Shown: positions 9,561-58,208 of the stretch, in pieces
Position numbering within the stretch: the stretch's first letter is position 1
How the letters are laid out: each line of letters begins with the position of its first letter
Source of the DNA: Saccostrea echinata
Lineage: Eukaryota
NCBI RefSeq assembly: GCF_033153115.1
Contig: NW_026889803.1
Span: 53,692,001 to 53,756,000 of the forward strand
Direction of reading: 5' to 3'
Length of the DNA: 64,000 nt
Translations under genes and position numbers: made by a program
The notes under the pieces: model-generated
The model's database searches: none
What the model was told of the DNA's origin: nothing
What the model saw: only the letters and a program-made list of their open reading frames with translations

Positions 9561-10269
9561 TTCTCTATCACTCATAGTAATCATTTTAATTACATTTTTG
9601 CAAGGACTGTCCAATAGCACATCGTTTAAACAAACTTAAAATTATTTAGAATGGCGAATTCTTACCAATCACAAATTGAAACTTTACACTAGTAACTGAA
9701 AAGGTGTACTCAAAAATTGTTCCCTATTTAAAGCTTATTGTAAATTTAATTCAAAGTCATATTATCTAAATTTTGTTATTTCAAATGGCTACCAATAAGT
9801 TTTTTAAGCAGTTGAAAAATGGAATATTAATCAAAGTGCAAGTTAGTGAAAACAAGTTGAAATAACAGTCATGAAATACGGTAAAAATTGACTACCAATT
9901 AAATATATCAGATAAACTGAGTAAATCGACCTCAAAATGTTAGACATAACACTGTTTCGTTTATAGATTTTCCTTTATAATGATTCTGAATTGCGCATTG
10001 CAGCATTTGAATAGCGGACTTTAAATCTATTCTCTCGATGCACTTAAACTGAAACAAGATACAAGAATTTTGTTATACTCTCCAATTCGTGAGCAGTTCC
10101 GTCAAAACGTACGGACTTTTTTTTAAAATAAATGCTGGTTTGGATCTAAGATATCGCAGCAACAACTCTCAAAAACATCAAACGAACAACGTGTTTATTG
10201 TTTTGTGAGTACTAGTATTTAAAGCTATATATATATATATCTTGTTTTACAAAAGATCTTTAGAACAAG

Positions 10270-17063: not shown

Positions 17064-18273
17064 TTATTTATTTTTCATAATCAAACTTTTAGACATTGTA
17101 CTAACTCTGACGTAATTCTATAATTGCTTCTGACATGATCTTGGGCCATGATGAAATAATTCTCTGGAGGAAATTTAATCGTTGCATATAACAGGAAGTT
17201 GCTTAATACAGGTGGTTGCGAATCAGTGATGACAGGTTTGACCATATTTCTGATTATCTTTGTTAACAATGAATTCAGATTCTGAGTATGTCCACTTAAA
17301 TATTAGTTTGATTCTTCCCTAAAACAAGTATAAAAGAATTTATCAAATTTCACTGAAATCAATTCTGGCTTCTTGGGATACCTTGCAGAGAAAAACTTAG
17401 AAAACTGAATAAAACAGTCTCCATAATAAATGACCTCCATGTCAGAGGTCATTATACTGAAATCAATTCTATACAGGTGATCATTTTTTAATTAAACTTC
17501 CTTTTTTGAAAAACAACTACTCACAACCAGTGTATGTGAACTAAAAATTAAAATACACATACATGTAATTGCACCAGTCATGACAAAAATACAGAATACA
17601 GATAAAAAAAATTCTAGACATGTAGAACAGTTCCTTAGGTTTATCTAGCATACACAGATCAAAATCTTCAATATATACAGTTTCATGTACAACTGCATGT
17701 ACAAGAAGCATTTTTACATATAAACATAAAACATAATCAAATTTAAAATCATCATTTCACACAAATTTCTTCTTTTTATGCAAGATTATTCACAGTTAAT
17801 GCTGGTGTTTTCATGTTTCATCTTATATCAAAAAAGACACAAATTTCCTAAATGTAATCATTTATAAAAATTTCAAATGACCTATCTTCATTTCTATTAA
17901 AAATTCTGAATCTACATCATATATTGTATGTAGCTGTGTAGTTAATGTAAATTCAAAATCTATCAGTACATTGTAATTTTCTGTTGATTTTATATTCCAT
18001 TGTTAATATTGATATATATACTTTTTACTTCTCACTACCAGAACAGGAAATGTTTAGTCACTGCAGTAATCCATTCTGTGGTCCACAGGTACATGTGTAT
18101 CTTTCCAAAAAATGCTGTTAAAAAATAGGTCTTTGAACACAGTTTAATAAAGCTGTTGAAATGCAACTGAGGCTGGCCTTAATGATTCTCACACTGGAGT
18201 TTATCTTGAAAGGCCCTTCCTTTTTAGGTAGGTAAAGCAAATGTTAGCCAGAATTAAATGCCAAGGTTTCATT

Positions 18274-21200
18274 CTACAGTGGGCCATATCCAGCATTCAT
18301 CAGTGCATCCTCCTTTAAAAGATAAAGGAAAGAAAAATTAACAAACTTCAAAGAAATATGGAGTTATGTTTTATACATCACAAGAAATTTCTAGATTTTT
18401 TTAAAATATAAAAATGACAAGTAGCTTTAGCAAAAACTATTACTTTAGATATTAATCTAGTCTTCAAAACTTTTTTTAACAAACAGAAAATTTCTTTCCA
18501 AGATATTTGTGTAAAATTGCCACTGGAAATATTCTCAAGTGCAAAGACCCCATTTGTGTGATAAAAGTGATTATGGATTAGGGCATAAATTGTTAATGTG
18601 AAAGATAGAAACTTTAAATGTACATAATGCAAGTGTACATTTATTTCAAATTGTACTCTAGCATGTTTACATGGCAATTATAATTACAGTAAAACTTACA
18701 AGGCATTCAGTTTTAAACAATTCTTGGTTATGAGGAATAATTTGAAATTTTACTGTCATTCTTTTAATAAATCATTGAGAGTATTACTTGAAAATTAAAG
18801 AAATACAAATTCCATTAATTTTATTGTGAATATTTTGCTACATCTGTAAAATCTCTTACTAAATACTGTTAAACTATTTTATCTACTATATATGTACAGT
18901 TACATGTATATCTCAGCTCTCAAATACATTGTACAACCTTAACATGGGAAACTTTCTTACACGTATCCACATAGAAACACATGTACTTCTTTATACAAAT
19001 ATATGGTATTAAATAAATGGTCCCCAAGATATTCCTTATACTTCAATTTTACAGTGTTGGTTAAAGTGGAAATGAAAGTGTTTTATGGAAGTAAGTTAGA
19101 CAATATCCACAGATTCTTAAAGTTAACAACACCAGAAGTTTCCACATTTAAAGTACAGACAGTGGTAAATGTGCATATCTAATAATGAAAGCAATGAAAT
19201 TAATGAATTGTCTGATTTTTTCACAGTCAGTGAAAAAAACATTTCAAAAAAAACATAAAGCATTGATCAGGATTCAGAGCTTAATAAAATGACCAATTCT
19301 TTTTTACCTATCATATTCTTTATTAACAGAGAACATTTTGTTTTTAATATGAAAGAAGGGTGCATATACAACATCACATTGATTCATACCAGAGAAAAAT
19401 TAAAATGAGTTGACCTAAAATAAATAAATATCGATTACAAAACATGTCATTGGATACAAGATAATTTTCCTTAAACATCAGCCAAAGAACAGACATTAAA
19501 TTATCTATTTTTAAAGCAATTGGCGTCTATCCCATATCTAAAACGTTGGTTTTTTCAATATAGATTCCAGTCAAAATTTAAACTAAAGGTACTGAGAGCA
19601 CTAAGCCTATATAATAATATCCCCTGCTCCCATAAAAGTATAATGGCAAAGTCCATGTTTTTCAAAATATCAGTATGATCAAAACATAAAATAGGAGATG
19701 CTCAATAGTACTATGTAATTAAGATTCTGGAAAAGTCTCATTGAATCTTATTCAGTGGTATAGGAAGAGTTGCGAATAAGAGATGGGTACCCCCAAGTGT
19801 AAAAGATGAATTGATGGACACCTCCATCACTATATACCCCAACTTTTCAATTGCGGGATATAAAATCATTGAAATAAGACATTATGGGTTAAATATCATT
19901 CTGATCTGTTGGATGTTTGGCAATAGCAATTTCATATGCAAAATCAAAAATATGTTTAAGGGAAAGAAAATCTACTCAAAATTTGCATTTCCCCCTCAAA
20001 TTAGGTACAAATACAAACCACAAGATTGTAGAAGGTTTTTGTGATGAGATCATCAAAGAATTTCTGTTCTGTGGCATACACTGAACTGTTGGTCCCAAGT
20101 TTCTTGTACTTTTGCTCTAAGTTATCCACCACAAAGTTTGATATTTTCTTGGCATTCTTTGGTGGTGCTTTTCTTCCTTGTAGGTAAGTGGACTGAGTTC
20201 CTGCTGCCTCCAACAGGTACTTAAACGTCTGTAAATTACACAAAACAGGTAAACTTACATGTGCTTAAACATCTGTACAAATTAAAATAGGTCAACTTAC
20301 ATGTACATGTATGGACACCAACATTTTACAAATTTGTTAGTCCCTAAATCAAATAATTAAACATTTTTTTTGCAAAACCATCCAACCCCTATATGTACAT
20401 GTACAAAGTTTATTTGAAAATCTTCATATACAATGTTGCCATGTCTACAGAATCAACATACATTGAACATTAATCACATACAGCATATCTTTCAATTCAA
20501 AGTTTTTTACTCAACAGATACTTACAGGGTTAACAGGTAATTCATCTTGTTCAAAATGTCCATCCCACAGTGATACGGTCAAGCTAGCATTGGGCTGTAG
20601 AAAGGATGTACTCAATATTAATTCTTAGATCAAATTTCACTGCACAAAAATGGTTTTAATCTGTCCAAACACAACTATATATTACATGTACATGTATAAT
20701 AATATTAAAAGGGTTGAGTGTACCGTATATACTCGCCTATAAGTCGGTCCGCCTATAAGTCGGTTGTATTTTTAAAGCTTAAATTGAAGGGATTGACCCA
20801 CTAAAATACCAGTCTTTTTATAACTCGCGTATAAGTTGGGTAATGAGTTTTGGATCAAAGTTTAACTCCCAAAAAACCGACTTATAACCTAAGTAATTCT
20901 AGGGTGATAAGCAATCTTTAGTGGGTTAGAGACTGTAATACTTTATTTACTCTGAATTATCATTCTGACATAGTTTGTGAAGGATTAATAAATCAATATT
21001 GTTTTGTAGGCTTTCAAAGTTGTTCAGATTATCCATTAATTATATTTAATCAAAGTCTTTTGCAAATAACTTCTGACAAGAAATACATTAAATTAATGTG
21101 AATTTATTAAGGGCTATTCCAGAAAAAATTGTGGGGGGGGGGGGGGGGTTGGAAGGCACTTTTATTTTTACCCCACCACCCATACATTTTTACCGGTAAT

Positions 21201-24200
21201 TACCTTCTACCCCACCCCCCATCAATTTAAAATTGCTTTTGATACAACCACCCATCTAAATTTAAAAAAAAAATTGTGTCACATATATATATATATATTG
21301 TGTGACATATATATAGTTGTTCAGATTATCCATTAATTATATTTAATCAAAGTCTTTTGCAAATAACTTCTGACAAGAAATACATTAAATTAATGTGAAT
21401 TTATTAAGGGCTATTCCAGAAAAAATTGTAGGGGGGGGGGGGGGGTTGGGGGTTGGAAGGCACTTTTATTTTTACCCCACCACCCATACATTTTTACCGG
21501 TAATTACCTTCTACCCCACCCCCCATCAATTTAAAATTGCTTTTGATACAACCACCCATCTAAAAAAAAAAAAAAATTGTGTCACATATATATATGCAAT
21601 AAAATTTTATGTACTTTTTTCAGGTATTGTAATTTATCTGACTTCGAATGAGTGTTGGGTTTTGACATCTATCCAACAATGGCCCGTTTTACAAAAGAAC
21701 TTAACTAAGATCAAAATGTTATTATGCAAAAATAAATTTCTTTTTTGCATTAATTACTTTAAAAATGTTTTAAATCTTTTTGAAAAAAAAATAAGATAGT
21801 TTTATGCCAACAATTTTTAACAGAAACATAAGTTTTGTAAGATTTTATGAACAACTAAAGTTTTTAGTCTTAGTAATAAGTTTTTTTGTAAAACAGTTCC
21901 CCGTGTTCCTGCTACAGCTTAAAAAAATATGTTCCTTTAGGCCTATGATACACACCACTGAAAGCCTTTATTATAGTGATTTGTATATCTGTTCTGATGC
22001 AAAACTTTGTAGTCTGTAAAGCTTAGGTTTAAGCTTTTACAAAAATGTATACACATGTACTAGTAGAAATGACATTCCTACAATTAATTGAAATTAATAT
22101 TGTAAATTATAGCCTAGCTATCCTTAACAATTGTTGTTCACCTTGTTCATAACAAAATGATTCCTGCTTTTTTTTTTTAGGGGGGGGGGGGGGGGGTACT
22201 AAACTACTAAAAGCAGTGTCTGTGAAGTGAAAACTTTGATTAAAAAAATATATTTAATGAATTCTAAATCCCATCTAACAACTTAGATCATTGGTGCATA
22301 CAAGTTTGACAAGTTAACACTTCACAGGTTAAGGACTGGCATGTTTTTGTCATAATATATTTCATATTGTTTTCAAACTCATATCTCATCTTCCTTTTAC
22401 TCTGTATGTGGTGTAAAGTAAAATATTTGACTTGCAAACTCCGTAGTCATGCTCTAAAACGTTCATTATCAGAAACAGTTTTTTTTTTACTTTTGGTTTA
22501 AAATAAAACGATCTTTCTGATTGTTTCTAATATCATTTAATTTACCAATGTAATTATGTTTGATTAAACTGGCAAAAAGAAACTGCACAACTAATCCGTT
22601 TTCCAATCCCCCACTGTCATTGCAGTCACAGTTGCACATGCTTTTATAGTTATCTGCCCTTGTTTCCGTTTTGTTCGATTCTACTTTCACTTTCAATGTA
22701 AACGCACTTTACAACTGTTTAGGACGAAAATATCAGTATTTACTGATTTATACAAAATGAGAGGAAAGAAGTACTTTGCACTTGATTATTTGTGAGGGTA
22801 AATACAACCACCCATCTAAAAATATATCGAGTGAGGACAACCACCCATACAAATTTAATTGCTCCAGACCCACTACCCATACAAAAATATATGAAGTGCC
22901 GTCCAACCCTCCCGTACATTTTTTCCTGGAATAGCCCTAAGTGTTTAAAAAGTTGTTGAAACACTTTAAACTTTTCTTTATTTAAGGAGCTAAACTGTTC
23001 AATAGCTGAATTATTACCATTTTCTGGTTTTTCTCCCACTTCCATGATTGAATCACATTTTTGGCATTCCTTTGAGTGAATTCCTGTACAATCCCAACTG
23101 GGGGTTTTCCTTTGAACAGGGGAACTTCATGTGTTCCTGATGCTACACAGTTTCTGAAAAATTTATCATCAAAATAAAACATGGAGATTTTAAAAATAAA
23201 AATATTTTTTCACATTAAACAAAACAATTTCCAAGGTGCCAACATGTTACAATTAAGAAGCCAAGTAATACAAGTGACTTGTGCTCCTATTCCTACATGT
23301 GTATGATACAGTGTACATACATTTAACATGTAAATTCAGTAAGTATTATTTCCTCACCCTTCAAACATGGGCACTACAGCCCAGGCCAGGATCTGTTCAT
23401 CCCCCAGAACCAGGTCCCCATTCTTTATGGAGTGGACCGTTCCTGGTTCCTCATGTTCTGGTTTCATACGGTATATCAGGTCCAAACCAAACAACTGAAT
23501 AATCAGGCAGGAGTAATTGTCATAGAAAGGGTGTAACAACTGAAAATAAAGACTACCGCATGAATCAAACTGGCAAAGACACAAGCTCATATATTTATAC
23601 CTCAATTCTAATCCACAGGTGTATCACTTTGAAAGAAAAAGGTTTCTGGCAAACACTGCAGTCAGATAATTTTCAGTCATTTCAAATATGAGAGATATAA
23701 ATCTAAATCATCCAATTACCATTCCAATTAGAACCCTTTGTACATTTTACTTTGTACATTTTTCTAAAAATATTGTAGTCAAAATACATAAAAGCAGAGA
23801 GTAGATATTTATACTTATTTAATTGGCAAAAATAATCATTAATCCAAAAGACAATGTTTTTTCCACACATACAAATTTCACTTAAAATTTCGTAGTATCA
23901 ATACTTTAAACTTAAAAATTAAAATCTTACTTTGTGGTCATCAAGAAATCTAGGAGCAGTTTGGAAGCTGTCATAGTCATGCTTCAGAGTAACAAACTTT
24001 TCTTCTTTTCCATAGCCCTCTGGTGTTTCCTCCATATCTAGCACCTTCTCTCCAGGGGAGACCCGAGCAAAGCAATGGACATAGTAGCCATCTACGGATA
24101 CATGATAAGGTGTGGCAGATCAAAATAAAGAATCTTACACCATAAATAAATCATCTCATTATGACAGATCCAAACTAACTTTATGTGCAAGTGTAATAAT

Positions 24201-27200
24201 CTTTTAGAAGTTTTCTTTAGTTCTGAATTATCAGGTCTACATTTTCTATTGGTTTGAGATAATTACCTGGTAGTCCATATGCCTGGTCGACTCTAGCATT
24301 GAGTCCCATTTTGACCCTGTACCTGACAGACTGAGCAAGAGGAAGATTGTCAGCCACAGCTTTAGCTCCTTGTTTTTTAACATCCAGCTGATCTTGAAGC
24401 CATTGTAGTAAGGCATCATCTTCTTCATCTGTTGATAAACCAGCAAATGAATGTTTACTGCTTCATGCAAAGTGCTATATTTTTTTTTTTGTTTTGGGGG
24501 GGGGGGGGGGGGGGGGGGAGGGGGTCATCAGATTTAAGTACTCCTACATTATATTAGGTACTACAGAAATTGAAATATAATCAAGCAAATTATAACAAGA
24601 AGTCTGTGAGCCAATGCTCACTAATAATAACCCCGCTCTGATGTGAATACACAAGTTCGGTTATGGACAAACACAGTGATAATCAGGAAATTGACATCGG
24701 ATTTGTAAAAACTGAATCCCAACATATGGCATGCCTAAACAAAGATTGTGCTAAAATTTCAAGCATCTGCAATGAGTAGTTGCTGAGAAAACTATGACCA
24801 AAATTTGCTAAGTATGATACGGACAGATGCACGGATAAACAGGAAGTTGACATCGGATTTGTTCCAAAAATGAATCCCATTATATGGCATGCCTAAACAA
24901 AGATTGTGCTAAAATTTCAAGCATCTGCAATGAGTAGTTGCTGAGAAAACTATGACCAAAATTTGTTATGTATGATACAGACAGACGCACTGATAAACAG
25001 GAAGTTGACATTGGATTAGTACAAAAATGAATCCCACCATATGGCATGCCTAAACAAAGATTGTGCTAAAATTTCAAGCATCTGCAATGAGTAGTTGCTG
25101 AGAAAACCACGACCAAAATTTTTTATGTATGGTACGGACAGACGCATGGATAAACGGGAAGTTGACATCGGATTCGTATAAAAATGAATCCCACCATATG
25201 GCATGCCTAAACAAAGATTGTGCCAAAATTTCAAGCATCTGCAATGAGTAGTTGCTGAGAAAACCGCGACCAAAATTTTTTATGTATGGTACGGACAGAC
25301 GCACGGATAAACAGGAAGTTGACATCGGATTCGTACAAAAATGAATCCCACCATATGGCATGCCTAAACAAAGATTGTGCTAAAATTTCAAGCATCTGCA
25401 ATGAGTAGTTCCTGAGAAAACTGCGACCAAAATTTGTTACGGACAGACAGACAGACGGACAGACGGACGGACAGACAGCTTGACAGACAGACAGACAGAC
25501 ACACAAGGGTAAAACAGTATACCCCCCTCTCCTTCGGAGCGGGGGTATAATAATATTTGGAGATTAAAATCTTAGAGATGCATGTATATGTTTTGCATAA
25601 TATATGTATGTCTGTATTCACCATTTAAATATATAATTACTTCACTACAGGACTGTCTGTATCACTGACACACTTTAACTGGGACTGAATCACTGAACAC
25701 TTTTACTGGGATTGAATCACTGACACACTTTAATGGGACTGAATCAATGACCCACTTTAACTGGGACTGAATCACTGACACACTTTAACTGGGACTGAAT
25801 CACTGACACACTTTAACTGGGACTGAATCACTGACACACTTTAACTGGGACTGAATTACTGACACACTTTCACTGGGACTATATCACTGACAAACTTTCA
25901 CTGGGACTGAATCACTGACACACTTTAACTGGGACTGAATCTCTGACACACTTTAACTGGGACTGAATCACTGACAAACTTTCACTTGGACTGAATCACT
26001 GACACACTTTAACTGGGACTGAATCACTGACACACTTTTACTGAGACTGAATCACTGACAAACTTTCACTGGGACTGAATCACTGACACACTTTTACTGG
26101 GACTGAATCACTGACAAACTTTTACTGGGACTGTATCATTGACACACTTTTTTAATTTCCCCCTACTTCCTCTGAACAGCAAGCTTACCGACTGCCACCT
26201 CATTAGACTGTTGTATTCTCTGTATCATCTCCCTCACTGATTTGGGATAGTTATGATGTTCCTTGTAGCTGCTGAATATCCTCTGTTCTGATACTGTGGG
26301 GCGGGCTGGCTCTGAGAAGTAATAACCAGAGGAATACGGCGGCATAGGGACAGCTCCCTATAAAATAACACACTCAATAGAAATAAAAGTACATGATGTT
26401 AGAGACAAAATACTTGTTGAATACAAGAGTACATTTTTTATTCTGAATATATCAGTATACCCTTTTCCTTGGAAATACATGTACATGTACAATGTAATAA
26501 TTTATTATGAAATGCAGGAACATGTAATCTTACAGAACTATTCACTAATTACACAGCAGTTACACTTATCTCCCCCCTTTCAGTGGTGGTTCACTGCAAT
26601 GTGTGATAAATACCTGTTGTGCCGGCAGAAGTCTGATGAGGATGGAGCAGGCTGGGACAGCAGGAAAGCTATCAAGGTCGGTAACCAGATTCTTAGTCTT
26701 TGTGGGAGGGATTCCATTCCTCAATCTCAGCTGTGTACCACCTACATTTAATTTGCCATCCTAAAATACACATGCATACTGATGATTCTTAAATGTTGCT
26801 CAGTTTTGCAGGCATTACATATGTACTCAGAAAAACAATCCCCTGAGCAGTAAATACAAATGTTGTTGATACAAGTACCTTGAACACTGGAACAAAACAG
26901 CTGCCTATGACAGAGATTTTGTCAGTCAGCACATCTTCCGTGTAAACCCTCAGAAAGATGACCATGTCAGGATCCATCTTCTTCTTCTGCTCATTAACGG
27001 TCAGTTTAAGTTCAAACAAAGGAGACCTGGCTGGACTTTCCAGGAGTGGCAGGGCCAGGAGAAGTTTAGCATCATTAGCAGTTTTAATCAACCCTGTCAC
27101 CTGTAGGAAGGAACAGAATAAAATCTCATAAACATGTAGAAATAAAGTTGACACTCTATATGTAAAGTGCAAGTACCTTCTGTTGTAAAATCATGGGTTG

Positions 27201-30200
27201 ATTACAACTAATTATACCAATCTCTTATATGCAAATTATACTGTATACCTACCAGGGAGAAAAACAACTACACTTTTCTTTTGAAAACTAATTAACACTA
27301 TACTCTTTTGAGAACTGTTGCATTGGAACAAATGTTGGAATCATATATGTTTTCTAATTAAATTTAAGTACATGTATATCTTGTGTATGAATCTCAAAGA
27401 TAAGCTCAGTTGCTTTCTTGTTTTCCACTGGAAAAGTCTCACAAATAAAAACTCACACTAGCTGTGATGAAGGCATCATCTACGGCTGGATAACAGATTA
27501 TCATAATGTTATCCGTACATGAATGTTGATTTTCATAGATCGAAATTTCAATGTCTACTTCTTTGAACTTACCTTAATCATTGAAGAGTTATCAGGAATG
27601 AAGCGGACACTGTCAATGTAGAAGTCAAATGCTTCCGACAGACCTGTAGGCATGGGATTACTGGCCATGGCGGTGGAGCTAGGCTCTACCCACGGCTCCT
27701 CACTATCCTGGGGTTTAGGGGTTTTAACAGCAGGGGTCCTTCTAGGAGCTGGCTTGGGTCTGGGACTATCAAAACATTTTATAAAATAAGTTTTATGATT
27801 CCACTTTCATTGACTAAAGAGAATAATCTTAAAGATGTGACAGCTAGAGAAAATTATGAAATATATGAAACATATCTGCACTAAATTCCAAGAGACCCAA
27901 TGTTTTGGACTTTGATCTGTGGCTAACCTTGGTTTTCGGACAGGACTGTGTCTTGGAGAGTGGGTAGCCAGGGGTGGAACCTGAGTGGTAGACCCAGCAG
28001 GTAATGTAGGAATAGGAGTGACCCCCTTGGGTCTGGCCCTACCCTCAGGTTCATTTCGTGGATCATACACAATAACCACCATCTCTGAGTTGTATCCCAA
28101 GACAGTATCTAATGTATGAAAAAAGAATTTTTAAATCTAATACAGTATTAGGGATTGTGACCATAACTGATAATTTAGCCAGGGAAACTACATGTAAATA
28201 TCATTCAGTATATATCTTCATGTGTAAGTACATATTATTACTAGGCTCTTTAAGTACTTAATGAATACCGGTACTATAAAGTCTTCTTCAAACTGAAAAA
28301 CAAATGTTATCAAAAATAGTAAACATTTCAAAAAACAAACCTTCCTGTTGTTCAGGTACAGGGGAGGCTGTATCTGATGAAATCAGATTCTGGGGGAGTC
28401 CCCCAGGATGGAGAGTGAACACAAAATCCCCATCCTGTAGGGACCACTCCACATTAGCCAAAGAGTCAGCTGAGGACCTGCCCCCTCGGGAGGCCCGCTG
28501 GAACAATGGGATTCTGGCCCATCCCAGCGGTACACTGGTTCCTGAAATACAAGACAAGCTAAGTGTATATGTATATGTACAATGAGATACAAATGTTATT
28601 CTGTAAACATGGGAATTCAACATGTATGGGTAAATTACACTTAATACACAATAATTCAAAAAAAAACATCCTTGTTCACATAAATACTTCCATGTATATG
28701 AACTTTTTGCTACTATTTCAGGTAAATAACATTTAAATACATGTATCAACATTTACTGTATTTTTTGAGTAGAAATTTTCTCAAATATTGAAAACTGTTA
28801 TCAATTTATCAGTCCATATCTTTTATCCTTTAGCAGTTATAATCAGTTTTAACATTTCATCTGCATAAAAGATAAATGAAATAAATCAGTGGGAATTACT
28901 TAATGCCTCTGGGCCTGGTTTCCTGTACTCGACACGAACGATGGCATAAGGAAAAGCCCCTAATTCTCTCTCTACATCCAGTTCTGAAATGTCCAAACTA
29001 TCAAATACAAACTTGTCCTCATAAAAATGAACCTCATATATAGTGTTTCCATAATTGTCCTTTGTTATGGATGTAGTGACAGCTTTCCCCATAGAGAGGC
29101 GAGATCTGAGCTTAACACTTCCGAAATAGGCGTGAACATGTATCTGTAGACCATCAGCATCTATATTTGCCAACCACTGCTCCTGTAAACCAAAGTAAAA
29201 AGAAATTAAAATAACAGGAAACTGATGCTGTCTTTATATTTTTTTAAATACAAGTACTGTAAGTCAGAGTATATACTTGGTATTATCTTTAAGAAAATGT
29301 TTTCAATCTAAAACTTAGATGAACAATATATATGTAAAAGACCTACCCTCTCTACCACCTCTGAAGGAATGATAAGTCGAAGGATGATGTCTTTAAGCCC
29401 ACAAGGATTGAGAAATCCTGGGATACCAGGGGTGGGCGGGGCACTTTGTACCTGTGCCAACCTTGATCCAGGTGTACTATGAAATTAATATTAAAATCAT
29501 TGCATATTTATATTAATAAACTTCCACAGACATTCTGTATTAATTTCCTTCAACATTTAATTCTTAAATTTTCCTATTATTGTAATGCACAAATATAACG
29601 TATATAGAGTTTGTGTTTGACAAAATGACAACTAAACCCAAACTTGAAATAGAGACAAACTCTAAGTATGTATTTGCAGTAAGATACTATTAGTTATCCA
29701 GGTTCAATCAAGGGTGTACGGGGATTTACCCCGGGTTGTATTACATACACCCTTCGGCCGAAGGGTGTATGGAATACAACCCGGGGTAAATCCCTGTACA
29801 CCCTTGATTGAACCTGGATAACAAATTTATTTCCTATGTACATGTACACAAATAAATTCTTTGTAAACAGGTCCAATCAACTGTGTTTCAAGCTATCAAT
29901 AAGATTTACTAAGTCCTACAATGCTCCATGACCTCATGTTATTTGCTTTTTATCATAGAGAACCTATGGATTGTGACATCACGTTTTTTTTACCCCTGGC
30001 TCAAGTCGGGTGTACGGAAATTTACATCCGACCTTGTAACCAATCAAAGCTCATGTTACAAGCTACATAGGAAATAAATGTACTTACCCCGGCCTTTGTC
30101 TGTTGAGGTAGGGAATTTCCAGGATATCCTTCCCATTTTCCAGATGGATCCAGGCCATCTGTATGTCCACTGTATACAGCTTACATGCTTCTCTTAAGAA

Positions 30201-33200
30201 AACCTAAAGAATTAAAAAGACTTATTTACACAATAATAACACTAATTTGTTCACCTGTTTAATTTATAATTCATTTCTTAAATTCTACTTAAATAACTGA
30301 TTATATTTTTGATAATTCCACATTTCTGACCTCCTTCATTTGCATGTAATCTCGAGCATTCATGAACTTTTCCCTGAGAAGTTCCAGTAGGGCCAGACTG
30401 AAGTGTTTAAGGACACTGGGCTGCCAACCCTGCATGAAGCACTGGTCCCAGATATACATCACAGCAGGTGTGTCCAACACACTCACAAAACCCTGGACAA
30501 AAATAAAACAGATTCAATCTCAGATGACAAATTTGTTCAAGATCATATTTAGAATAAAATGACATGTAAACGTAGAAATTTCTGCCCTATATATTATATT
30601 TATATTACAATATGATATATATGTACATTTATATAGCTACAGTACCTCTCCAATCCATCTCCTGATGAAGACTAAGGGATCTGCCAACAGTTCATTTGAC
30701 ATATACTCCTCTCTCTTACTCCCTGGGGTGGCCTTTAGTAGTTCCTCTGCTTTAGCTTTCTCTGAACTTATCAGGTGCATTAGAAACTCCTGCAATTTTA
30801 TGGCAACAACATTCAAAAGTTACTTGTGCTAATTTGCTCATGCCAAAAATTTATTTTGTATCCTGATGCTCTGATTGATCTGGATATTTGAGAAAAAAAA
30901 ATCAACATACCTTTTTATTGACCTTCATATTTGTCTTGGCAATGGATTTCAAGTGAGTGTAAAGGTCAGGGTCAGACAAGCTCAAGGTCATCATCACCTG
31001 CTCAGCAATGGCAAATACTTGTGGCCAGGTGGGAAAACAGCTAGAGTTCAAAAGGTCAAGGTACATTGCCAACTCATACACGTGTTCCCCTGAAAAAATT
31101 TTGCATATGATGTTTAATACCATAATGTTTTGGGAAAATTGAAAAGATATAAATATGTTTACAACTCATGCAATGACACAAATTAATGCAAAATAAGTTA
31201 TGTCTTATACTGATTTCTTTTTAAAACTGAAATTCGATAATGCCATATGTACATGTAGTGTAGATTTCCATATTAATCTAAACCAAGATACATGTATCCT
31301 GTACAAGTGTATGCAAAAAAACACAGAATATGATTATTTATAAAGATAAGATAATAAACATCCCACATATACAAAGAATTTGAATGCACAGTTAAAATCA
31401 AAGGACAATCAAACAGCATATGCCAGCTTTTGAGTCTATGCTCCTTCTATTGTTCACGACATTAAATCGAGGCATATGAGTAAATTAAACAAATTTAATA
31501 CCTTTCTCTGTGGTTTTTTCTGATGGAGCTTGGAAGGCTATCTGAAGTGGAAACAGCCAGTGGATGAGGTAGGGCTCATAGCTTCTATCATACACATACA
31601 GAATGTTCAGCACACGAGACGCCTCCCTCATGTGGTCTGTGGATTTAAAGGCTACCATACTAGTTGTCTTGTTGTAGGTCTGAAAAAATTAAATAGCACA
31701 TGTCTATTGGAGTTATTGCTGGTTGTCATTCGCTGAATATTTGCTGGGTAGAATGCTGATGTATACCTCAATGACTGCTGTTTCAATCAAGCCTGCAATT
31801 GGTGAGTTCGTGGCTCTTGTAATTCTTAATTCCTGAATGCCCCTACTGACCGCTTTTCCGAATCTTTCGCGAATTATTTTCTCCAAATTCCTAAAATCAT
31901 GTTAAATCAGATTAGTTCTCTTAAAACTAAGCACAAGTAAATAGATTAAAACAATTTAAAGCACATTTTAATTAAGGAATGAATTTAATAGCTACCCAAT
32001 TTATACGGTATAAACTGGATTGGGGCAGTTTATGCTTTATAAACCTCGAAGCGGTTTACAAAATAGCGTACAATTAAACTCATTCCTTATAATTTAATTT
32101 TCATTCATTTAATGTAAGAAAAATAGTTGACTGCCTTTAAAAAATGACTTTAAATTGTACAACACTTCCTGCGGATCGATACGTTTTTGAGGCAAATCAT
32201 TGTGACATAGACAACCCAATTTATACGATATAAAGTAATTTTTTAATCCAATCAAATACAGCGTTATAACCAGAATTAAATTATTGATTTTTGAGATACA
32301 TGTACTCCCATGATTTGAATAAAAGAAACTTACGCTTCAGGCATTTTTTTCCTCTCCTCTCTGAAGAGTTCATCTGACCACATGAAGGTCCTCAGTGAGC
32401 CAGGTAACTGACGACCATGCATTTTACCAGCCACATAGTCATACTTTCTAGGGTCCCTTTGAAGAATGGCTTGTACAGCTCGACCAATCAGATCACTCTG
32501 GGGACCCCATAGTGGTGGGGGATCACCCTCAACTTTATGAATCATGCCTAGAATTGTGTACATTGTACAGTTTATAATCTGAAAGATTTCTTATAATTTT
32601 TTTTTTAATTTATACAAATGAAAAATATTCCACTCTAAAGATTTTCAATACTAAGTGCTATCAAAAAATTTGAACTTTGACTTGTTGTTTCAGTGTTACA
32701 GCAAACTGATTTTTTAATGTTTACATACATTATTAATTTCAATATAATACCACATTCCTCCCTGCAAGAGTCCATTACAGGGTCATCACAACATTTGTTT
32801 TTAGGACCATACACCCATTTGTTACCTTTTTGTTGACATGCACACACTGACCATGCTTTATTATTACATGTTTATTGGGTTGAATGTTACAGGACATTAC
32901 ATACATGTACATGTAATGTTAATGTTCAAATGTAGAAAATACGCTATATCTACACACATAGAAATTCCATACACATTAACAGATTTCATCAAGTTTTGTG
33001 ACCCCCCCCCCCTTTTTTTTGGCTGAGTTTCTTTTTTCACAAAATTACTGAAAATACACAAATGATGACTAGGCTAACTATTGTTATACATAAGCAAAGT
33101 TTAACAAATGCTTTACTACACATATACATGTACACTACATAAAACATATACATGTATATTCTTCTTTTGATCCTTTCTTGATACACATGTTAAGGAGACT

Positions 33201-35825
33201 GTTAAACTGCACTTTTTGAGGTTAAACATCTCTTTTTAAAGTTACATCAATGTACATGTAATACTCTGAACAATTAATATGTAGTATATTGTCACAAAAT
33301 CAACCAGACACTGAGACAGGTTAGCTGTAACTTACAGAAGCATGCACACTCACCACTATTTTTACCAGCTAATCAAAAGAAAACCAGTATTCCAACTCAT
33401 TACATTAAGTAAATTTATATATTTTCTGGATCTGGTAATTTAATCTTTCAATAAGCAGCATACATATTTTTACTTTATATGTTTTTTTTTTAAAAATCTT
33501 TTAATGAATTAATACATCTCTAATAATGTGAAATAAATAATCTTAATAATTATCAAAACTATGAAATATAGCAACGTTCAACATTAAGACAAAAATCAAA
33601 ATATTGGAAAACTATAAATAAAGTATTGATTAAATATACATGATTAAAATTTGGGTTCATTATCAGTCAGGAAGGATTTTTACCATAATGAGTAGCCATT
33701 TGGAACTAATATTTTCAAGGAAAAAATTCTACATCTCCAAAGGAAAACTAAGGAGAGGAGTTTAAGATTAAATATATTTAAAATATGGTATAAAACTAAA
33801 GTTTTACCTCGTATTGTAGCCGAGTTCGGTTTATCAGTAGAGCCGGATGATACTGATGATACAGCTGTTGCCGGTTTGACACGACTCGGTGCTGGAATCT
33901 TTAACATTCTGTTCAGTTTGTTTTCTAACTTAATCTCATCCTCCTTTTGTTTCTACAACAATAAACAAACAGTGTTTGTGAACTTATAATGCTGATGAGT
34001 TTGGAAAATTCCTACTGTGGCAAAATAGTGTCTGTTACATTTTATGTAACTATGAACTTTTAACATCGTTGAGAAAAGAATTACATGTACTTGCAGTAAG
34101 TAATAACAAGTCAAACAGATCTAGAACGATACCGGGTATATTCCCTTCTTCCAAGTGTTTTAATTTTCTCATTGAGATTTTTAAAAAAAACATTGATGCA
34201 ACTAATGAGTTGAAATAAAACAATAGAAATACATGTATAACCTATGCATAAACTGCAATAATTCAGGTCACTGAAACCAAATACCAGATAATATATTGTG
34301 GTGTATTCATTAACATGGTACATTTGACTAAGTTTGAATGACCCTTGATGAATTCAATTCATATTTAGGAGCATCTTTGATGAAAATTTTTTACAAAATT
34401 GCCAAATAGTAACTTGACTACTATGTATAAATGAACAAATCAAGGATAAATACTTCCTGAAGAGTAAACAGATAGAAAATCTTCAGAAAAATGGATTTTT
34501 TTCTAATACTCATGGATTTTTAATTTTTTTGCATACATGCATTGGGTTTGTAGACTTACTTTGAGTTCATTTTCCTGTTTGTATTCTTCTCTCTCCAAAC
34601 CTCGGAGGAAAATGTTGTATGTGTGCTGTAGGAACTGCTCATACTCATTGGGCTGAGTGGTGCTGTAAAAATACAATGTGGATATCCACATGATACAATG
34701 ATATACTTACCATTTTTCTCCTTTATCATTTTATGATTAAATTAAACACTGTTGGTAGCTTTAATTTTTGACAAGAAGAACAATATTCATGTATATACAA
34801 AAGCGTATATTATATGCTAATATTGCAAACATACTCTCTCATAAGTTTGTAACAAATCCAAATGTATATGAATCCTACATGATAAAAAAAATGTAAATAT
34901 TTGTCTCACCTTGTGTTAAGATTTTTGCCTAACATTACACTGTAGCCTTTTTCCTTGACACACTTATACACCTGGCTGTTCAGGTAAGCCTGGGCCTCCT
35001 TCATAATCTTTTGTTTCTCTATGGGAGTCATATTGGGTGGTTCCTGTTTTTGTAAAACATCAATATGTATTATATGAATAAATGTACATAATTTTGAAAG
35101 AATTAAACGATAATGGGAATAATTATTTTAAAAAATTACATAAAATACCCTTACAGATGCTCCTCATTTTATTTGTCAGTTAAACTACTAATACATGTAT
35201 GTTCTTCTCAAAACTTACAAATGTGAGTGCTTTTCATTCCCGATCTCAATTACATGTCTCCTATCTGTCTGTGATATTGAAGTACAAATGTAATTTAGAA
35301 ACTGACCAGTATCTGTGGGTTCCATGTTGCCTTGGGGAGGTACTTTTCTACAAACACCTCCCCCAGAGTCTGAATCAGGGCCTCCTTTCTCTCAGGTTTA
35401 CTAAACTGTTTCTCCACCTTACTGGCCAAGGATTGGGCAATTTTAGCCTCCATCTGAAAGAAGCCATATTTCATTCTATTCTCTCAATATATTTGAGATT
35501 TGAAAATGCCTGCATTTCATGAATAGTATCACAATAAGTTGCACACATTAAAATTTTGTGTTCAATAATGATTCGAAAAAGAGATTTATTTCTGAATTCA
35601 TGCACAATTTTATCATTAAAATGATCACTGTTGTCATACATTTGGAATTATATTCATCAATTGTGAAGAATATTTGGCATTTCAAAGATTCCTGCAGCAG
35701 TCAGGACTTACCGCATGCCATGGTGCATCTGGAAGTAAAGTTTGTTGATAACAGGAATTAATCCAGTCCACGGAGAACGGATTTCTGTCCGATTTTTTTG
35801 AAGGATCTTCTCTATGAGTTGACAT
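18274..35825 (-). CDS. Uncharacterised ~1414-aa protein: degenerate TBC/Rab-GAP-like domain + about three C2-like modules. 27 exons: 35712-35825, 35307-35453, 34910-35043, 34560-34662, 33808-33952, 32334-32547, 31767-31890, 31502-31679, 30911-31089, 30646-30789, 30331-30492, 30088-30203, 29347-29476, 28900-29182, 28341-28541, 27928-28108, 27573-27765, 26879-27100, 26614-26760, 26189-26357, 24267-24428, 23931-24091, 23358-23539, 23018-23153, 20526-20594, 20019-20228, 18274-18312
   Basis: All introns GT-AG with matching phases; 4245 nt open frame ending EDALMNAGYGPL*. TBC-like motifs LPGSLRTFMW, ASRVLNILYVY, LSDPDLYTHL, FIRRWIGEGFVSVLDTPAVMYIWDQCFMQG..LALL. C2-like motifs PLGWARIPLF..LQDG, FDFYIDSVRFIPDN..VIGSCFVPVF..LNVG, ILAWAVVPMF..VASGTHEVPLF. 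Confidence 0.85.
20721..20890. mobile_element. Tc1/mariner-pogo type MITE fragment
   Basis: ta|CCGTATATACTCGCCTATAAGTCG terminus with repeated TATAAGTCGG / CCGACTTATA subterminal motifs. Confidence 0.55.
21018..21600. repeat. ~297-bp near-identical tandem duplication including the left end of a Harbinger-like MITE
   Basis: 21018-21315 repeated at 21316-21600; junction at a (TA)n tract. Confidence 0.85.
21408..22937. mobile_element. PIF/Harbinger-like non-autonomous element
   Basis: taa|GGGCTATTCCAGAAAAAA ... TTTTTTCCTGGAATAGCCC|taa; 3-bp TAA TSD; ACCACCCAT subterminal repeats at both ends. Confidence 0.75.
24594..25551 (-). mobile_element. HINE (Helentron-associated) element carrying ~5 copies of a 157-bp satellite
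   Basis: Minus strand: hairpin TATACCCCCGCTCCGAAGGAGAGGGGGGTATA, (CTGT/CCGT)n microsatellite 25440-25500, repeat starts at 24753/24911/25068/25225/25382, terminal CTTGTT. Confidence 0.8.
25655..26150. repeat. 28-bp minisatellite, ~18 copies
   Basis: Unit ATCACTGACACACTTTAACTGGGACTGA. Confidence 0.95.
29693..30078. mobile_element. Palindromic non-autonomous element (130-bp hairpin followed by a segment bounded by a second inverted repeat)
   Basis: 29693-29822 is a near-perfect palindrome centred on CCCTTCGGCCGAAGGG; TTTATTTCCTATGTA (~29826) pairs with TACATAGGAAATAAA (~30064). Confidence 0.7.
31970..32285. mobile_element. Degenerate element with the same hairpin-plus-IR layout
   Basis: TAAGGAATGAATTTAAT ... 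ATTAAACTCATTCCTTA inverted pair; ATAATTTAATT ... AATTAAATTAT second pair; internal direct repeat ACCCAATTTATACG.TATAAA. Confidence 0.5.
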
Positions 35826-36011
35826 CGTCAATAATAATTCAACATCCAATGAATTAAAACTTGTAAACACACTCCGTAAGTTCACATTAAAAAATATACA
35901 AATAAAAAAATAAATAAGTTACACATACATAAATATCCCTTGTACCCTGCAAGTCTATGTACAATGTTTTACATATTTATATCACAACAGACCACAGGTC
36001 CAGTCAGCCAG

Positions 36012-39000
36012 CTAAGTGACTAGTGCTTGAAGCTCGGGGGGATCTTCTCCATAGCAATGTTTAGCTAATGTGTTTCGGTAAGAGTTTTCATGCTGAACGC
36101 TCTGCAAAGATACATTGTATATGTATGAATAATATCAACTGTACAATATGAGATCATTTTCATTAATCAAATGATATGCTGATAAAATGTTACCAGGTAT
36201 TACAATTGTCCTTCTTGGGCTAGTAGAAGTAACCAAAAAACCATTAACTGAACCTCTAACAGAAATTTAAGATACTGAAGCAAATTTTAATTTTTTTTAC
36301 CATAGAAGAAGTTCTACATTTGGCCAAACAGAGTTCAAAGTGATCAGATACAGAGCCAAGTGCTATGTCTAATCCCTCACGAGCATTAGTAAGAATCTTC
36401 TGCAACAATGGTCTCTGAAAAGAACAGGCTGAAGGATAACTTCTGTGTCAAAAGAATATATTCAACGATATAGTTATACATGTAATAAAGCAAAAAATAA
36501 AACGATACAAATATAGGAAGAAAATAGGCTGTGTAGTACATGTATCCAGATTGGGAGGAGGGGGGTTATAATTTAACAGTTTTTGATAAAGATTTCTGTA
36601 CCTTATCCGGCTTTAGACAACAGGCTACACAGTATTCATACACAACACAACAGGCATTCTTCAGACATGTATCACAGCGATGCTTTGATGTTGATTTAGA
36701 TCCCCTTCTTACATTACAACATCCATGGGGGTCCACTGATGTACGATTACAAACGTACCCTGAAATATCATATAAATACAAGTATGATATATTTTTCTGT
36801 TTGAAATTGCACCAGGCAATGAGTATATATTCAATACTCATTTCCAAAAAATATCAAACCTCAATATCTCAAATTAATGATGTTAACATAAAAACCTGCA
36901 ATATCTAAGGGTTTGAGATATTGAACTTCATGAGATTTACAAAAGAATGAAATATTTAAGCTTGAGATACTGAACTTGATGAAACTAACATACCTAATAT
37001 TATATTAAGTGTTTGATATTAAAATGGATTATTAAGTTTGTAATATAGTTCAATCTAACCTCTTTGAGATACCTGGTACATGTATCTGACACATACAGTT
37101 GAACTTCGGTATCTCGAACTCAGATATCTTTAATACATGTATCATGGATATGTCAAAGTGATTTTGAAGTCCCAAGCACTTATTTCTTAAGTATTTTACC
37201 CTGGATATCTTGAATCCTCTAATATCTTGAAGTCATTTCTTGGTCCCGTGAAGTTCGAGATAACGAAGTTTGACTGTTACAGTATATCATTGTTTTTATA
37301 CTGTTCTGCATAAGAAAGTGGTTATTTTCACTTTATAAACATAACAGTAAAGTCAGTTATTAAAACATGTTTCATATGCTCAAAAAAATTCTGAAAGAGT
37401 ATTTATTTTTACTCTGAAAAACAAAACATTTCAACACAATGTGCAACAATAATCATATATAAAAGCCTTGTCTGTATACCTCTCTCATCCACAATGAGAC
37501 TCTTTCCCTGGACGGAATTCCTGCATATCTGTTTCTTTGTAGAGTTCCCCTCCCCCAGCTGGACTTCAGAAATCTTTGGCTGCCATTCAAAAGGTTGTCT
37601 TAACAGGGTATGCTTTATTTCATAATCGTCTGGTACAAGCTTTGAGTTCTTAAAATGTAAAAAAAAAAAAAAAAAAAAAAAAGACTAGTGACAAAAAAGT
37701 GTAAACATTAGAAAAAAAATCCCGGCCTGAGTTTTCCTACTCACTTTTTGTCCCATACCTAGACTTGGCTTGTAAAATAAATTATATATTTATTACAGCT
37801 CATTTCTGCAAATTTTATGCAATTGTTACCCTCACACTGAACAGTTATCAACACCACACCAAGATCATAGATCAAGATCATTACCTCCCACTGCAATAAT
37901 GCCAAACCTATATTTCCTTTTAATATATATATATATTCCCTTATCCCACAGGCAAAGGCCTTGATAAGGCATTGTCTTGATAATGAGTAGACAGTAGACC
38001 AATGTTCATCAGGTTCGGCACAATCTCTTGATTTAGCTATATAGCTTGAATTAGCTGTATAGCTTTATTTAGCCATTCAAAATAGCTTGATTTACCGGTA
38101 GCTATTTTATCATACTTTTTTTCTTAAATGTGCAATTTTTTCAGTATGTAAAAAACGTTGCACTTAGGAGCAGTGAAAGTTTTTATCTTTGAACTCTTCT
38201 GAAAACAATGCATGAAAAAATCACTCATCAAATTACGTGTCCTTGAGAGAATTTGGACTTAAAGTTCTAAAAGTTTGGGGGCTATATAACAGGGTTCGAC
38301 ACTAACTTTTTAAGGATTTAGTCCAGCCGGACTAGTGCTTCATTACTTTTACTAGTCCGCACACGATTTTATTAGTCCGTCAAAAAAAAGAAAAGAAACA
38401 TCAATATTTTTAACATTAATTTAACATGACAATTAATATACTTATTATTTTTTGAAATAAACAAAGTATTTACGTGAAATATATTATTCCACAGATTCAT
38501 TGAAATCTCGCAATCAGCAAGTACGATTGTATTCCCGATCTCCGTTCTTTACATTACATCCAAAACGTCCAACATCTTCCTTAAAAGTGTCATACTAAAT
38601 CATGATCGCTAAAACCTTATACTTCATATCGATCAGTCCAAAAATTAGGCGCTGAATTGACCCAGCATTGCGTAACTACCCGCCAAAAGCTAGAAATCTA
38701 AAAATACACGAGGTTTTCCTGTAAAAGTTGTTGAGAATCGGACATCGGTAATTTATTCATATTGTTTTTCAGAAATTTTTATTGGTCCGTTCGGACTTAT
38801 TAGCCACATATTTTATTAGTCTGAATGAAAATGTATTAGTCTGAGACTAACGGACTAACGTTAGTGTCAAACCCTGTATAAAGCAACTGATTTGTGACTG
38901 CACAATTACTTCCTGAATGAAAAGTTTTGGGGCTATATAAATCAATTGATTTGTGACTGCACAGTTACTTCTTGAATGAATTTATAAAGAAGGTCAATTA

Positions 39001-39588
39001 TGGTCAACAAGAAAATTGATTGGTAATAATTCAGCACAATGTGAGATAATCATACTTAGCTATGCCTCACTGCACACAAAGCTTGAAAAGTGTTCAAAAG
39101 CAGTGCAATGTTTAAAAGAAGTTTGAATTAGATTGATTTTTTTAATAGTCCATATTTGAAATCTAAGCAGTTACATCTTTGCGACTTTTTGTGTAGGCCT
39201 AATTCTTATTAAAAAAAAATTTGTGTAAAACTGAACTGAAAAAGCTTCATCAACCTATATAGTTTTATCAAGATGTTGTGCTGGACTTGTTCATTTGAAC
39301 ACTCAAGAATATATTCCTTTAAAACAAATTCAATCCCAGATTTATAATGAATTATATGTTCTTGTGTTTTTAAAACAAAATAAGTTCGTTTACGCCAGGT
39401 TTTTTTTTTTTAACCTGAAGGAAATTCGAACCACTGATTCGATCTATTCATCCCTTTGCGATGGATCCAATTAAAATGGTTCTGTTACTAACCTTTGATA
39501 ATTTATTGGATATAAATAAAATAAAACCGCCTCCTAGTAGCAAAACCAGAACAATTCGCCGTTTTAAGTGACGAGTTCTCCACAACAT
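36012..39588 (-). CDS. SPRING1: SREBP-regulating gene protein SPRING1 (C12orf49/UPF0454), 208 aa; exons 39493-39588, 37480-37648, 36602-36759, 36301-36414, 36012-36101
   Basis: N-terminal TM ([17 protein letters not shown]), then [63 protein letters not shown]...[11 protein letters not shown], the Cys-rich SPRING domain; 627 nt in frame. Confidence 0.95.
37096..37276. mobile_element. Tc1/mariner-pogo MITE
   Basis: ta|CAGTTGAACTTCGGTATCTCGAACT ... AGTTCGAGATAACGAAGTTTGACTG terminal inverted repeats. Confidence 0.75.
38290..38876. mobile_element. MITE with CAGGG termini
   Basis: CAGGGTTCGACACTAAC ... GTTAGTGTCAAACCCTG; flanked by TATAA on both sides; TAGTCC/GGACTA subterminal motifs. Confidence 0.8.
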
Positions 39589-56686: not shown

Positions 56687-58208
56687 TCCACTTCTCCACA
56701 TCTGATGGGACAGGCTCACCTCCTGTTAGGACTGGAATCCTCAGAAGGGATAGGAATAGTTTTATCATAACTGTACAAGGGATGTTTTTCTTTTCAGTTG
56801 TTGCTTAATTTGGAGTTTTATCTAAAATATCAATCTGCTTGTTTTATGGTAGCTTTAGAAAGATACATTTATGACAGAAGTTTTAATCATAAATCTTAAA
56901 CTAATTTTAGTTTATTGAAATCTATATTTTTGATGCCAAATTTTCCCAATTTACCTAAGCACTCAATATTACATTACAGGTATTTTCAATGTACACAGTA
57001 TTTTTTCAGTGTAAAAAATAAGTTTTGTTAGACCATTGTATGCTTTGATTATTCACTTGCAAATATTATACTGAATTTTTCCTTAAGTAAGTTCATGTTT
57101 TGATAAATTAAAACTGTAATGTAATTGAGCAATAAAAGTGGTGAAAATTTCAATGTGTTCTCCTGGTATTTTAATGAGATCATAGGTACTGTATGTTCAT
57201 GTCATGTGTGTGCCATGCCCTTTGATAAATTTTGTTTTATTATTGAGAGGCTATTAAGTTGTGCAGTATACAGAGGTTTCTGATAATCACAGATAAAGTT
57301 GATGTTCACACACAGTTGTATACATACTTGTAGCAATTCAGCCCCCTCCCCCCCCCCCCCCCCCCCCCTTAATAATTGCCAATTCATGGTGTAAAAATCA
57401 AGAATATTATGAGTTAAAGATGAAAAATTCAATCTTGAATATTAGAATATCATGACTTTATCTTTTTTTTATCTCAATCACTCAAGATATGAGAAAGATC
57501 TCTTTTTTCATGGACATAATGTCAAGGTCATTTAGACAGACCAAAGACATTTAAGTAAGCCTAAAAAACAAAAACAAAAAAATCTGTTTATTTGATTTTT
57601 TTTTTTTTAATTTTTTGGTCACTAGTATTGTACATAAATCTGTTTTTGTAAACAGAGCACATGCTCTGTTATTGTTACTGTTTACGTTTTACTGGGTGTG
57701 TTTAATTTGTTAACTCTGTTTAACTCTGCACACGTCACTGAGCACGGACTGACGATACTGGTGAGAAAGTTTCGCTTTCTCACATTTCTAGTCTGAATTT
57801 TCTGGATTATAGTTTAAATATTTTTCATTAATACACAACAAAATTTCTCTTTTTCTTAAGTATTAAGGATAAAGTTTACTTTGTGAAAGTGGATATTATT
57901 TAATCAAATGTGTCCTGAAAGTCGTAGTTTTAATCATTTCCAGATAAAAGAAGTTTCTGGACACGCTTTTATTATATTTCTGTGTGAAATATGCTAGCAA
58001 GAAAATTAATAAGTCATGATATTATATAGAAAATATTAACCTCAAATCTGTGTCCAGGCCCCTTTAAAAAGATATAACCAGTATATGAACAATTCTGTAA
58101 GATTTCAGTTTATCATTAAGTTGGTTCCTTACATAAGTTGTCAGTTCCTTTGTTGTAGATAAGCATGATAAGCAACACTTTCATTTTATTGCATGCAGTT
58201 TTTCATTT

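Follow-up and report, generated by a model that had tools for sequence, protein, structure and literature searches.

SPRING1 and a large TBC/C2 gene share an exon in spliced oyster RNA and may form a read-through dicistronic unit

We analysed a stretch of 64,000 nucleotides (nt) from Saccostrea echinata (contig NW_026889803.1, positions 53,692,001 to 53,756,000 of the forward strand), called the window here, in which SPRING1 is followed on the minus strand by a large gene whose protein combines a TBC-like domain with C2-fold domains (the TBC/C2 gene). The two open reading frames (ORFs) are separate, conserved and on the same strand, as expected of a dicistronic mRNA, and the end of the first and the beginning of the second lie within one exon of spliced RNA. 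The RNA data are contigs of five out of six runs, X1 to X4 being near-identical to the window and X6 coming from another species; the runs carry no RNA label in their records and were taken as spliced RNA because their contigs contain GT-AG joints. The unit comprises the following features, given in window positions.

39493..39588, minus strand: SPRING1 coding exon 1, with the ATG at 39588 (spliced model, 208/208 amino acids (aa) as in XP_061162974)
37480..37648, minus strand: SPRING1 exon 2 (X3 contig piece and spliced model)
36602..36759, minus strand: SPRING1 exon 3 (Pfam PF10218 match, RNA contigs and spliced model)
36301..36414, minus strand: SPRING1 exon 4 (GT-AG joints in 5/5 runs)
36012..36014, minus strand: SPRING1 stop codon TAG, read from the sequence
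35712..36101, minus strand: shared 390-nt exon, in which 30 terminal SPRING1 codons (stop included) are followed by the 186-nt spacer and 38 initial TBC/C2 codons (X1 contig 3, X6 contig 9)
35826..36011, minus strand: intercistronic spacer, U-rich, with five AUGs and an in-frame TGA at codon 10, without a stable fold
35974..35981, minus strand: TATAAATA, readable as either a variant poly(A) signal or a TATA-like box; its presence does not exceed chance (0.21 TATAWAWR expected per 186 nt)
35823..35825, minus strand: TBC/C2 gene ATG, with A at -3
35454..35711, minus strand: TBC/C2 intron 1, with AATAAA at 35585-35590, spliced out in contigs (joint 35453/35712 in X1-X4; in X6 via an 18-nt loose end matching exon 2)
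18274..35825, minus strand: TBC/C2 gene, 1,414-1,419 aa, with a helical N-terminus, a TBC-like domain without IxxDxxR/YxQG, and C2-fold domains
17487..17492, minus strand: ATTAAA, where the whole unit may be polyadenylated (further candidates at 18148, 17179 and 17072), its usage being predicted

The five-exon SPRING1 model (39588-39493, 37648-37480, 36759-36602, 36414-36301 and 36101-36012) translates into 208 aa, all identical to the S. echinata protein XP_061162974. Its exon 3 matches the Pfam SPRING1 family at E 7e-14, and the whole genome holds one match to that family. As an earlier sequence-only reading had stated, 186 nt separate the SPRING1 stop (TAG, 36014-36012) from the TBC/C2 start (ATG, 35825-35823). 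By tblastn the S. cucullata protein aligns over 35825-18277 in 25 pieces, some of which cover two exons, for a gene first read as having 27 exons; it begins at the same Met. Saccostrea orthologues are likewise annotated as starting at ATG 35825, and nearly all molluscan homologues keep the exon-1 motif that follows it. Judged from this shared start and conserved motif, TBC/C2 exon 1 is genuine coding sequence.

The spacer consists of 80 T (43%), 50 A, 39 G and 17 C. It is U-rich and without AATAAA or ATTAAA, as the sequence-only reading had it, and the first AATAAA past SPRING1 (35590-35585) indeed lies in intron 1 of the next gene, behind the donor GT at 35711. The single TATAAA in the spacer is real, though it occupies 35981-35976, one base away from the position first given. 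Likewise, the upstream ORFs opened by the five spacer AUGs are short, but at 1, 3, 14, 1 and 5 codons they are not all of the start-stop kind that had been described. Taken alone, the missing canonical signal is a poor argument for an absent SPRING1 3′ end, because the minus strand of the window carries only 0.59 A[AT]TAAA (and 0.22 TATAAA) per 186 nt, and a canonical poly(A) signal turns up in only 24% of spacers after shuffling.

RNA contigs and conservation of the pair

X1 contig 3 (1,181 nt) runs unbroken through 36101-35712 and is then joined to 35453-35306, while X6 contig 9 (910 nt, depth 62) passes from SPRING1 exon 3 through a spacer of ~203 nt and on into TBC exon 1, with 18 more letters from exon 2. 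The proposal that coding exon 1 of the TBC/C2 gene is part of the SPRING1 3′ untranslated region is therefore supported, 36101-35712 being one exon in spliced contigs. X6 represents a second species: leaving out the last SPRING1 exon, 69 of its 878 aligned coding letters differ (~92% identity); its spacer has diverged, and the 3′ part does not align to the spacer of the window. Linkage on a single molecule may be reflected in the bridging spliced contigs of 2/5 runs and two species, contigs not being molecules. SPRING1 RNA extends past the ATG in 3/5 runs (X1, X3 and X6), and splicing at the 35711 donor occurs in 5/5.

In X3 the SPRING1 contig ends at 35792, beyond the TBC/C2 ATG. The X2 contigs end at 35950 and 35939, leaving a 10-nt gap in the spacer, and those of X4 at 35875 and 35893, overlapping there by 19 nt; the spacer ends of the X2 and X4 contigs carry neither poly(A) nor a leader. 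Where SPRING1 contigs stop, the end point varies (35950, 35875 and 35792), and no loose end carries poly(A). Depths of the SPRING1 and first TBC contigs are 5.1 and 5.1 (X1), 4.9 and 4.6 (X2), 9.1 and 3.0-5.7 (X3), 12.7 and 15.5 (X4), and 62 and 87 (X6); they were not used to rank the two genes. We disregarded the cover at 35484-35585 in X2 and X3, together with partial matches at 35877-35915 (X2) and 35900-35939 (X3) whose loose ends are long, taking all of these for probably unrelated AT-rich records.

SPRING1 homologues were gathered with P0035 as query, the SPRING1 exon query having found only three proteins. An internal TBC/C2 exon as query found 32 homologues, and those with names are molluscan proteins of 1,093-1,462 aa, except for one unclassified fragment of 134 aa. 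The pair has consecutive GenBank identifiers in 7/8 bivalve or gastropod species with both proteins under ordered identifiers:

Bivalves, consecutive: Mactra ACF0H5_017386/7; Mya WAR02621/2; Dreissena DPMN_100284/5; Mytilus coruscus CAC5371613/4; M. edulis CAG2251109/10
Gastropods, consecutive: Littorina KAK7088192/1; Nucella ACOMHN_051198/7
Exception: Solemya 005446/005443, three apart

Among RefSeq pairs from 16 species, where identifier order need not be genomic, 5 are consecutive, 6 differ by no more than 50, and the remaining 5 are widely separated yet come from contigs of equal length.

A metagenome pattern scan supplied four further loci (L002-L005). In a clam locus (L004, closest to Mya among the queries used), gene order and strand are the same and the spacer is 736 nt long; L003 duplicates it almost exactly, starting within the spacer. 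Two loci with distant TBC/C2 homologues (L002, 1-3167, and L005, both on the minus strand) hold no SPRING1 within 206 and 529 nt upstream, stretches too short for proof. L002 is 36-38% identical and appears spliced, and its similarity stops near residue 620, before the C2 part. Since neither has SPRING1 directly upstream, these sequences suggest that the pairing may be limited to molluscs.

Four of the 11 mollusc-like rows have a complete intron-free SPRING1 ORF on a contig above 5 kb: two are oyster-like (5,815 and 5,740 nt), one is mussel-like (5,409 nt) and one gastropod-like (6,332 nt); in comparison, all 31 lower-ranked rows, with the taxon mostly not assigned, have SPRING1 on contigs of 922-3,989 nt. 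The gastropod-like SPRING1 (P0239) and a TBC/C2 protein (P0277) are each on a contig of 6,332 nt, while the contigs with oyster TBC/C2 proteins measure 5,727-5,803 nt. At 5.4-6.3 kb, the longer SPRING1 contigs come close to the length predicted for the dicistron (~5.9 kb). The 120 rows listed name no heterobranch SPRING1, and the 32 matches no cephalopod TBC/C2 protein. Regarding conservation of the spacing in other molluscs, adjacency of identifiers and, in the clam, gene order are kept, but the length of the spacer is not (186, ~203 and 736 nt). The pairing seems to go back at least to the split between bivalves and gastropods, which is Cambrian.

Expression of the second ORF

The spacer length of 186 nt is a multiple of 3, but stop-codon read-through into a fusion protein is ruled out, because the spacer has an in-frame TGA at codon 10 and its length is not conserved modulo 3 (~203 nt in X6 and 736 nt in L004). 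A ribosome loading at the SPRING1 cap is unlikely to reach ORF2 by leaky scanning, as 21 AUGs lie in the 813 nt upstream of it and AUGs are not depleted: the coding sequence contributes 16 against 12.3 expected and the spacer 5 against 4.5 expected, and out-of-frame AUGs number 14 compared to 11.2 +/- 2.1 in synonymous codon shuffles. The clam spacer has 22 AUGs, against 14.8 expected. Moreover, the ORF1 start is not weaker than that of ORF2, both reading ACG-ATG-T with A at -3. With fusion excluded and leaky scanning unlikely, ORF2 could be reached either from a second 5′ end near its ATG or by internal entry.

Some features of the sequence hint weakly at a second start. The four AUGs nearest the ORF2 ATG all have U at -3, the ORF2 ATG itself having A; the last 110 nt of the clam spacer are AUG-free; and the CpG observed/expected ratio (o/e) of the shared exon is 0.69, compared to 0.23 over 21 TBC exons. 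CpG o/e inversely tracks methylation in the chordates of PMC4776710, and by analogy may do so in oysters.

Three candidate elements were rejected. The sole Rfam row, IRES_Cx43, scored 17.9 bits against a cut-off of 70, lies on the other strand in an intron, and was treated as a chance match. A 12-mer common to the oyster and clam spacers was equalled in 39/500 resamples and is not significant, and the TATA-like box of the spacer, considered as a signal, is not above chance.

We propose that a read-through dicistronic mRNA is made and that a second, shorter RNA, begun within the shared exon, supplies most of the TBC/C2 protein, a proposal to which we assign about an even chance. It builds on the shared exon in spliced contigs, the two conserved ORFs, the lack of a fused frame and of AUG depletion, and the conserved adjacency; to these it would add linkage on single molecules, a missing SPRING1 3′ end and a second start. 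SPRING1 would be transcribed from a CpG-rich promoter in common with a divergent RING-finger gene. Without an efficient 3′ end of its own, its RNA would read through the shared exon, use the 35711 donor, join the TBC/C2 exons by splicing and take its 3′ end from the TBC/C2 poly(A) site, yielding a dicistron of ~5.9 kb if the ATTAAA at 17487..17492 is used. Most TBC/C2 protein would be translated from a shorter RNA with its 5′ end inside the shared exon, and a downstream promoter within the SPRING1 3′ end, which the sequence-only reading had offered as its alternative, would likely coexist with the read-through RNA. SPRING1 would borrow the downstream poly(A) site and the TBC/C2 start would sit in the last exon of SPRING1, leaving neither gene free to move; the linkage from oysters to snails would therefore be explained.

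Several points weigh against this proposal. A bridging contig is missing in 3/5 runs, with breaks in the spacer (X2, X4) or just after the ATG (X3), and contigs are de Bruijn paths in which two RNAs overlapping by at least 31 nt would be fused, so that a bridge need not be a single transcript. A SPRING1 stop followed by ~26 junctions should invite nonsense-mediated decay where this is exon-junction-dependent. Adjacent identifiers give neither strand nor distance, and the placement of P0239 and P0277 on one contig follows only from the equal length of 6,332 nt. SPRING1-only RNAs may exist, because 7 of the 11 mollusc-like SPRING1 rows are on contigs of only 981-3,772 nt and the clam spacer of L004 holds two AATAAA, at -117 and -39. 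Around the ORF2 ATG no promoter was seen in the 600-nt CpG o/e, which is 0.30-0.52 there versus 1.18-1.32 at the SPRING1 promoter, and 2/21 other TBC exons match or exceed the shared exon (0.79 and 1.09).

Alternatively, two monocistronic mRNAs could overlap tail-to-head, SPRING1 ending at a non-canonical signal in the spacer or TBC exon 1 and the TBC/C2 RNA beginning upstream, with the assembler fusing them. Such an overlap would sidestep both the decay problem and the translation problem, and it agrees with the contig breaks in or just after the spacer in 3/5 runs, with a TATAAA followed by a U/GU-rich tract, a typical 3′-end element, and with the two AATAAA of the clam spacer. We nevertheless consider it rather unlikely: the break points vary by run and carry no poly(A), SPRING1 RNA continues beyond the ATG in X1, X3 and X6, and the same fusion must recur in oyster, mussel-like and gastropod-like assemblies.

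An obligate dicistron with one promoter, in which the U-rich spacer lets ribosomes reach ORF2 by internal entry, shunting or reinitiation, is improbable. It would fit the absence of a CpG-rich promoter signature at the ORF2 start and the absence, in the five runs, of an alternative first exon or leader joined to the shared exon. According to PMC4528330, the gaps of polycistronic-only Drosophila genes (-34 to 319 nt) span both 186 and 203 nt, and in 45 of 159 annotated dicistronic pairs both proteins apparently come from the dicistron only, with no monocistronic form. However, the fold of the oyster spacer is ordinary (z = +0.88) and no Rfam family was matched in it, its 3′ half is unalignable even to the close species X6, the clam spacer is 736 nt long with its excess of AUGs, and cellular internal ribosome entry sites (IRESs) are disputed in the account of PMC4705651.

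Very little speaks for an operon-like precursor that is cut in the spacer, with the downstream piece trans-spliced to a spliced leader or otherwise matured: the short, U-rich intercistronic region and the clam AATAAA 117 nt before the ATG would suit it, but the spacer is intact in mature spliced contigs, the aligned SPRING1 and TBC contigs show no leader-like loose end in the spacer (contigs lose true 5′ ends, and no search for a spliced-leader RNA gene was made), and PMC3795323 places Mollusca among phyla with only putative leaders, most never shown to trans-splice. Equally remote is the competition between the intron-1 AATAAA and the 35711 donor that the sequence-only reading had invoked for a SPRING1-only mRNA, for although this is the first canonical AATAAA past the SPRING1 stop, all 5/5 runs join across intron 1, no intron depth is left over in X1, X2 and X4 once the exon part of bin 35515-35915 is accounted for, bin 35586-35687 is without cover in X2, X3, X4 and X6, and no continuous cover leads to the AATAAA in these contigs, which drop rare forms, so that a minor isoform may exist.

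Flanking features and the TBC/C2 protein

Upstream of SPRING1, one further feature completes the unit:

39400..40100, no strand: CpG-rich region from SPRING1 exon 1 to the divergent RING-finger gene (CpG o/e 1.18-1.54; plus-strand joint 39893/40532)

This region is likely a bidirectional promoter common to both genes. The plus-strand gene (window 39810-56700) and SPRING1 are arranged head-to-head, with a few hundred CpG-rich bases lying between them. This gene has RNA joints at 39893/40532 and 41052/41396 and encodes a C-terminal RING finger at 55848 and 56603; we take it to be RNFT2, presumably in the same head-to-head layout as in humans, and there are papers in which both genes are mentioned. 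On the minus strand an out-of-frame ATG at 39600-39602, 14 nt 5′ of the SPRING1 start, opens a short ORF overlapping that start. Intronic repeats at 31970-32290, 37093-37250 and 37900-39100 draw many unrelated RNA contigs, and two of them coincide with CpG-rich peaks.

Active TBC Rab-GAPs carry the catalytic motifs IxxDxxR and YxQG. Both motifs are absent from the TBC region (window 30088-32557, minus strand) in 6/6 homologues, so the TBC-like domain is likely a pseudo-GAP joined to C2 domains. A partial Pfam RabGAP-TBC match was found in 2/3 full proteins scanned, above the cut-off in one, and covers only Pfam model positions 158-216. A structural model of a 993-aa homologue (mean predicted local distance difference test score, pLDDT, of 55.6; beta domains mostly 60-88) matches the C2 domains of ferlins, PI3K, synaptotagmin and AIDA in structure comparison, and atlas look-alikes of the TBC/C2 protein include cnidarian and chordate clusters.

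Within the TBC/C2 gene, a 15-nt microexon (33354-33368, minus strand) with AG/GT ends is present in X3 and skipped in X2 and X4, which fits isoforms of 1,419 versus 1,414 aa. CpG o/e climbs to 0.64-0.69 in 33500-34400 (minus strand), near the exon where an S. cucullata RefSeq isoform starts (Met 182; another isoform starts at Met 124), and this segment may be an internal TBC/C2 promoter. Elsewhere in the window, two similar plus-strand ORFs (10264-10878 and 12118-12753) encode a B-box-like Cys/His motif followed by coiled-coil-like sequence; we presume that they are tandem TRIM-type paralogues.

Meaning and comparison with known systems

The SPRING1-TBC/C2 arrangement is a real and deeply conserved feature, and probably belongs to a kind already known, dicistronic mRNAs being catalogued in flies, vertebrates and algae. 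No report of a molluscan or SPRING1 dicistronic mRNA appears among the papers listed by the literature searches, which covered little of the subscription literature; the search found no paper joining SLIDR with Aplysia, and PMC7986045 makes no mention of molluscs.

The arrangement links SPRING1, a factor of the SREBP pathway, with a TBC/C2 protein not yet characterised, and molluscan expression counts and knock-downs of either gene may be confounded by it. With a short (186-nt) and a long (736-nt) spacer, the pair is a test case for cellular internal initiation on a natural animal dicistron, and for how an mRNA with many junctions past its first stop evades decay. Should the dicistron prove obligate, contrary to our expectation, it would have been kept since bivalves and gastropods parted, and an intron-rich ORF of 1,400 aa would be internally initiated behind a 208-aa ORF and 21 AUGs while escaping decay. 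It would then contain a natural cellular element of the IRES or reinitiation type without conserved sequence or fold.

Like the spliced-leader operons of chaetognaths, nematodes and tunicates, the pair has a short same-strand gap (the operon criterion in PMC12460157 is <250 bp); unlike them, its spacer stays in spliced RNA and no leader is seen in contigs. Trans-splicing itself is patchy among animals in the account of PMC12460157. The leaky-scanning bicistrons of green algae, as described in PMC11892635, are likewise conserved two-ORF loci with no fixed frame relation, but they combine AUG depletion with a weak ORF1 start, whereas the oyster pair has 21 upstream AUGs and A at -3 in both starts.

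Vertebrate CERS1(LASS1)-GDF1 is a bicistronic gene with two unrelated full-size ORFs on one conserved transcript (PMC4371885, PMC4705651); according to PMC4705651, how its ORF2 is translated was not investigated. The oyster pair resembles it in its unrelated full-size ORFs and in having a membrane protein of lipid metabolism upstream. It differs in its genes and phylum, in an ORF2 of 1,414 aa with >20 introns after the first stop, and in a linkage that comes from contigs only.

According to PMC4528330, among Drosophila's protein-coding gene models, 2.5% have a polycistronic transcript, and given the 159 annotated pairs, the sequence-only view that operon-like units are unusual outside trans-splicing lineages was overstated. 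Many of these loci also produce a monocistronic RNA, and monocistronic RNAs for the 3′ ORF usually arise from an alternative downstream promoter. Like them the molluscan pair shows no trans-splicing, here as far as contigs tell; its stop-to-start gap is similar (-34 to 319 nt at Drosophila loci with polycistronic RNAs only), and its genes are dissimilar, as in most of those pairs. Small ORFs are over-represented in the Drosophila loci, whereas the molluscan pair joins ORFs of 208 and 1,414 aa that are adjacent across two classes, with a spacer of 186-736 nt.

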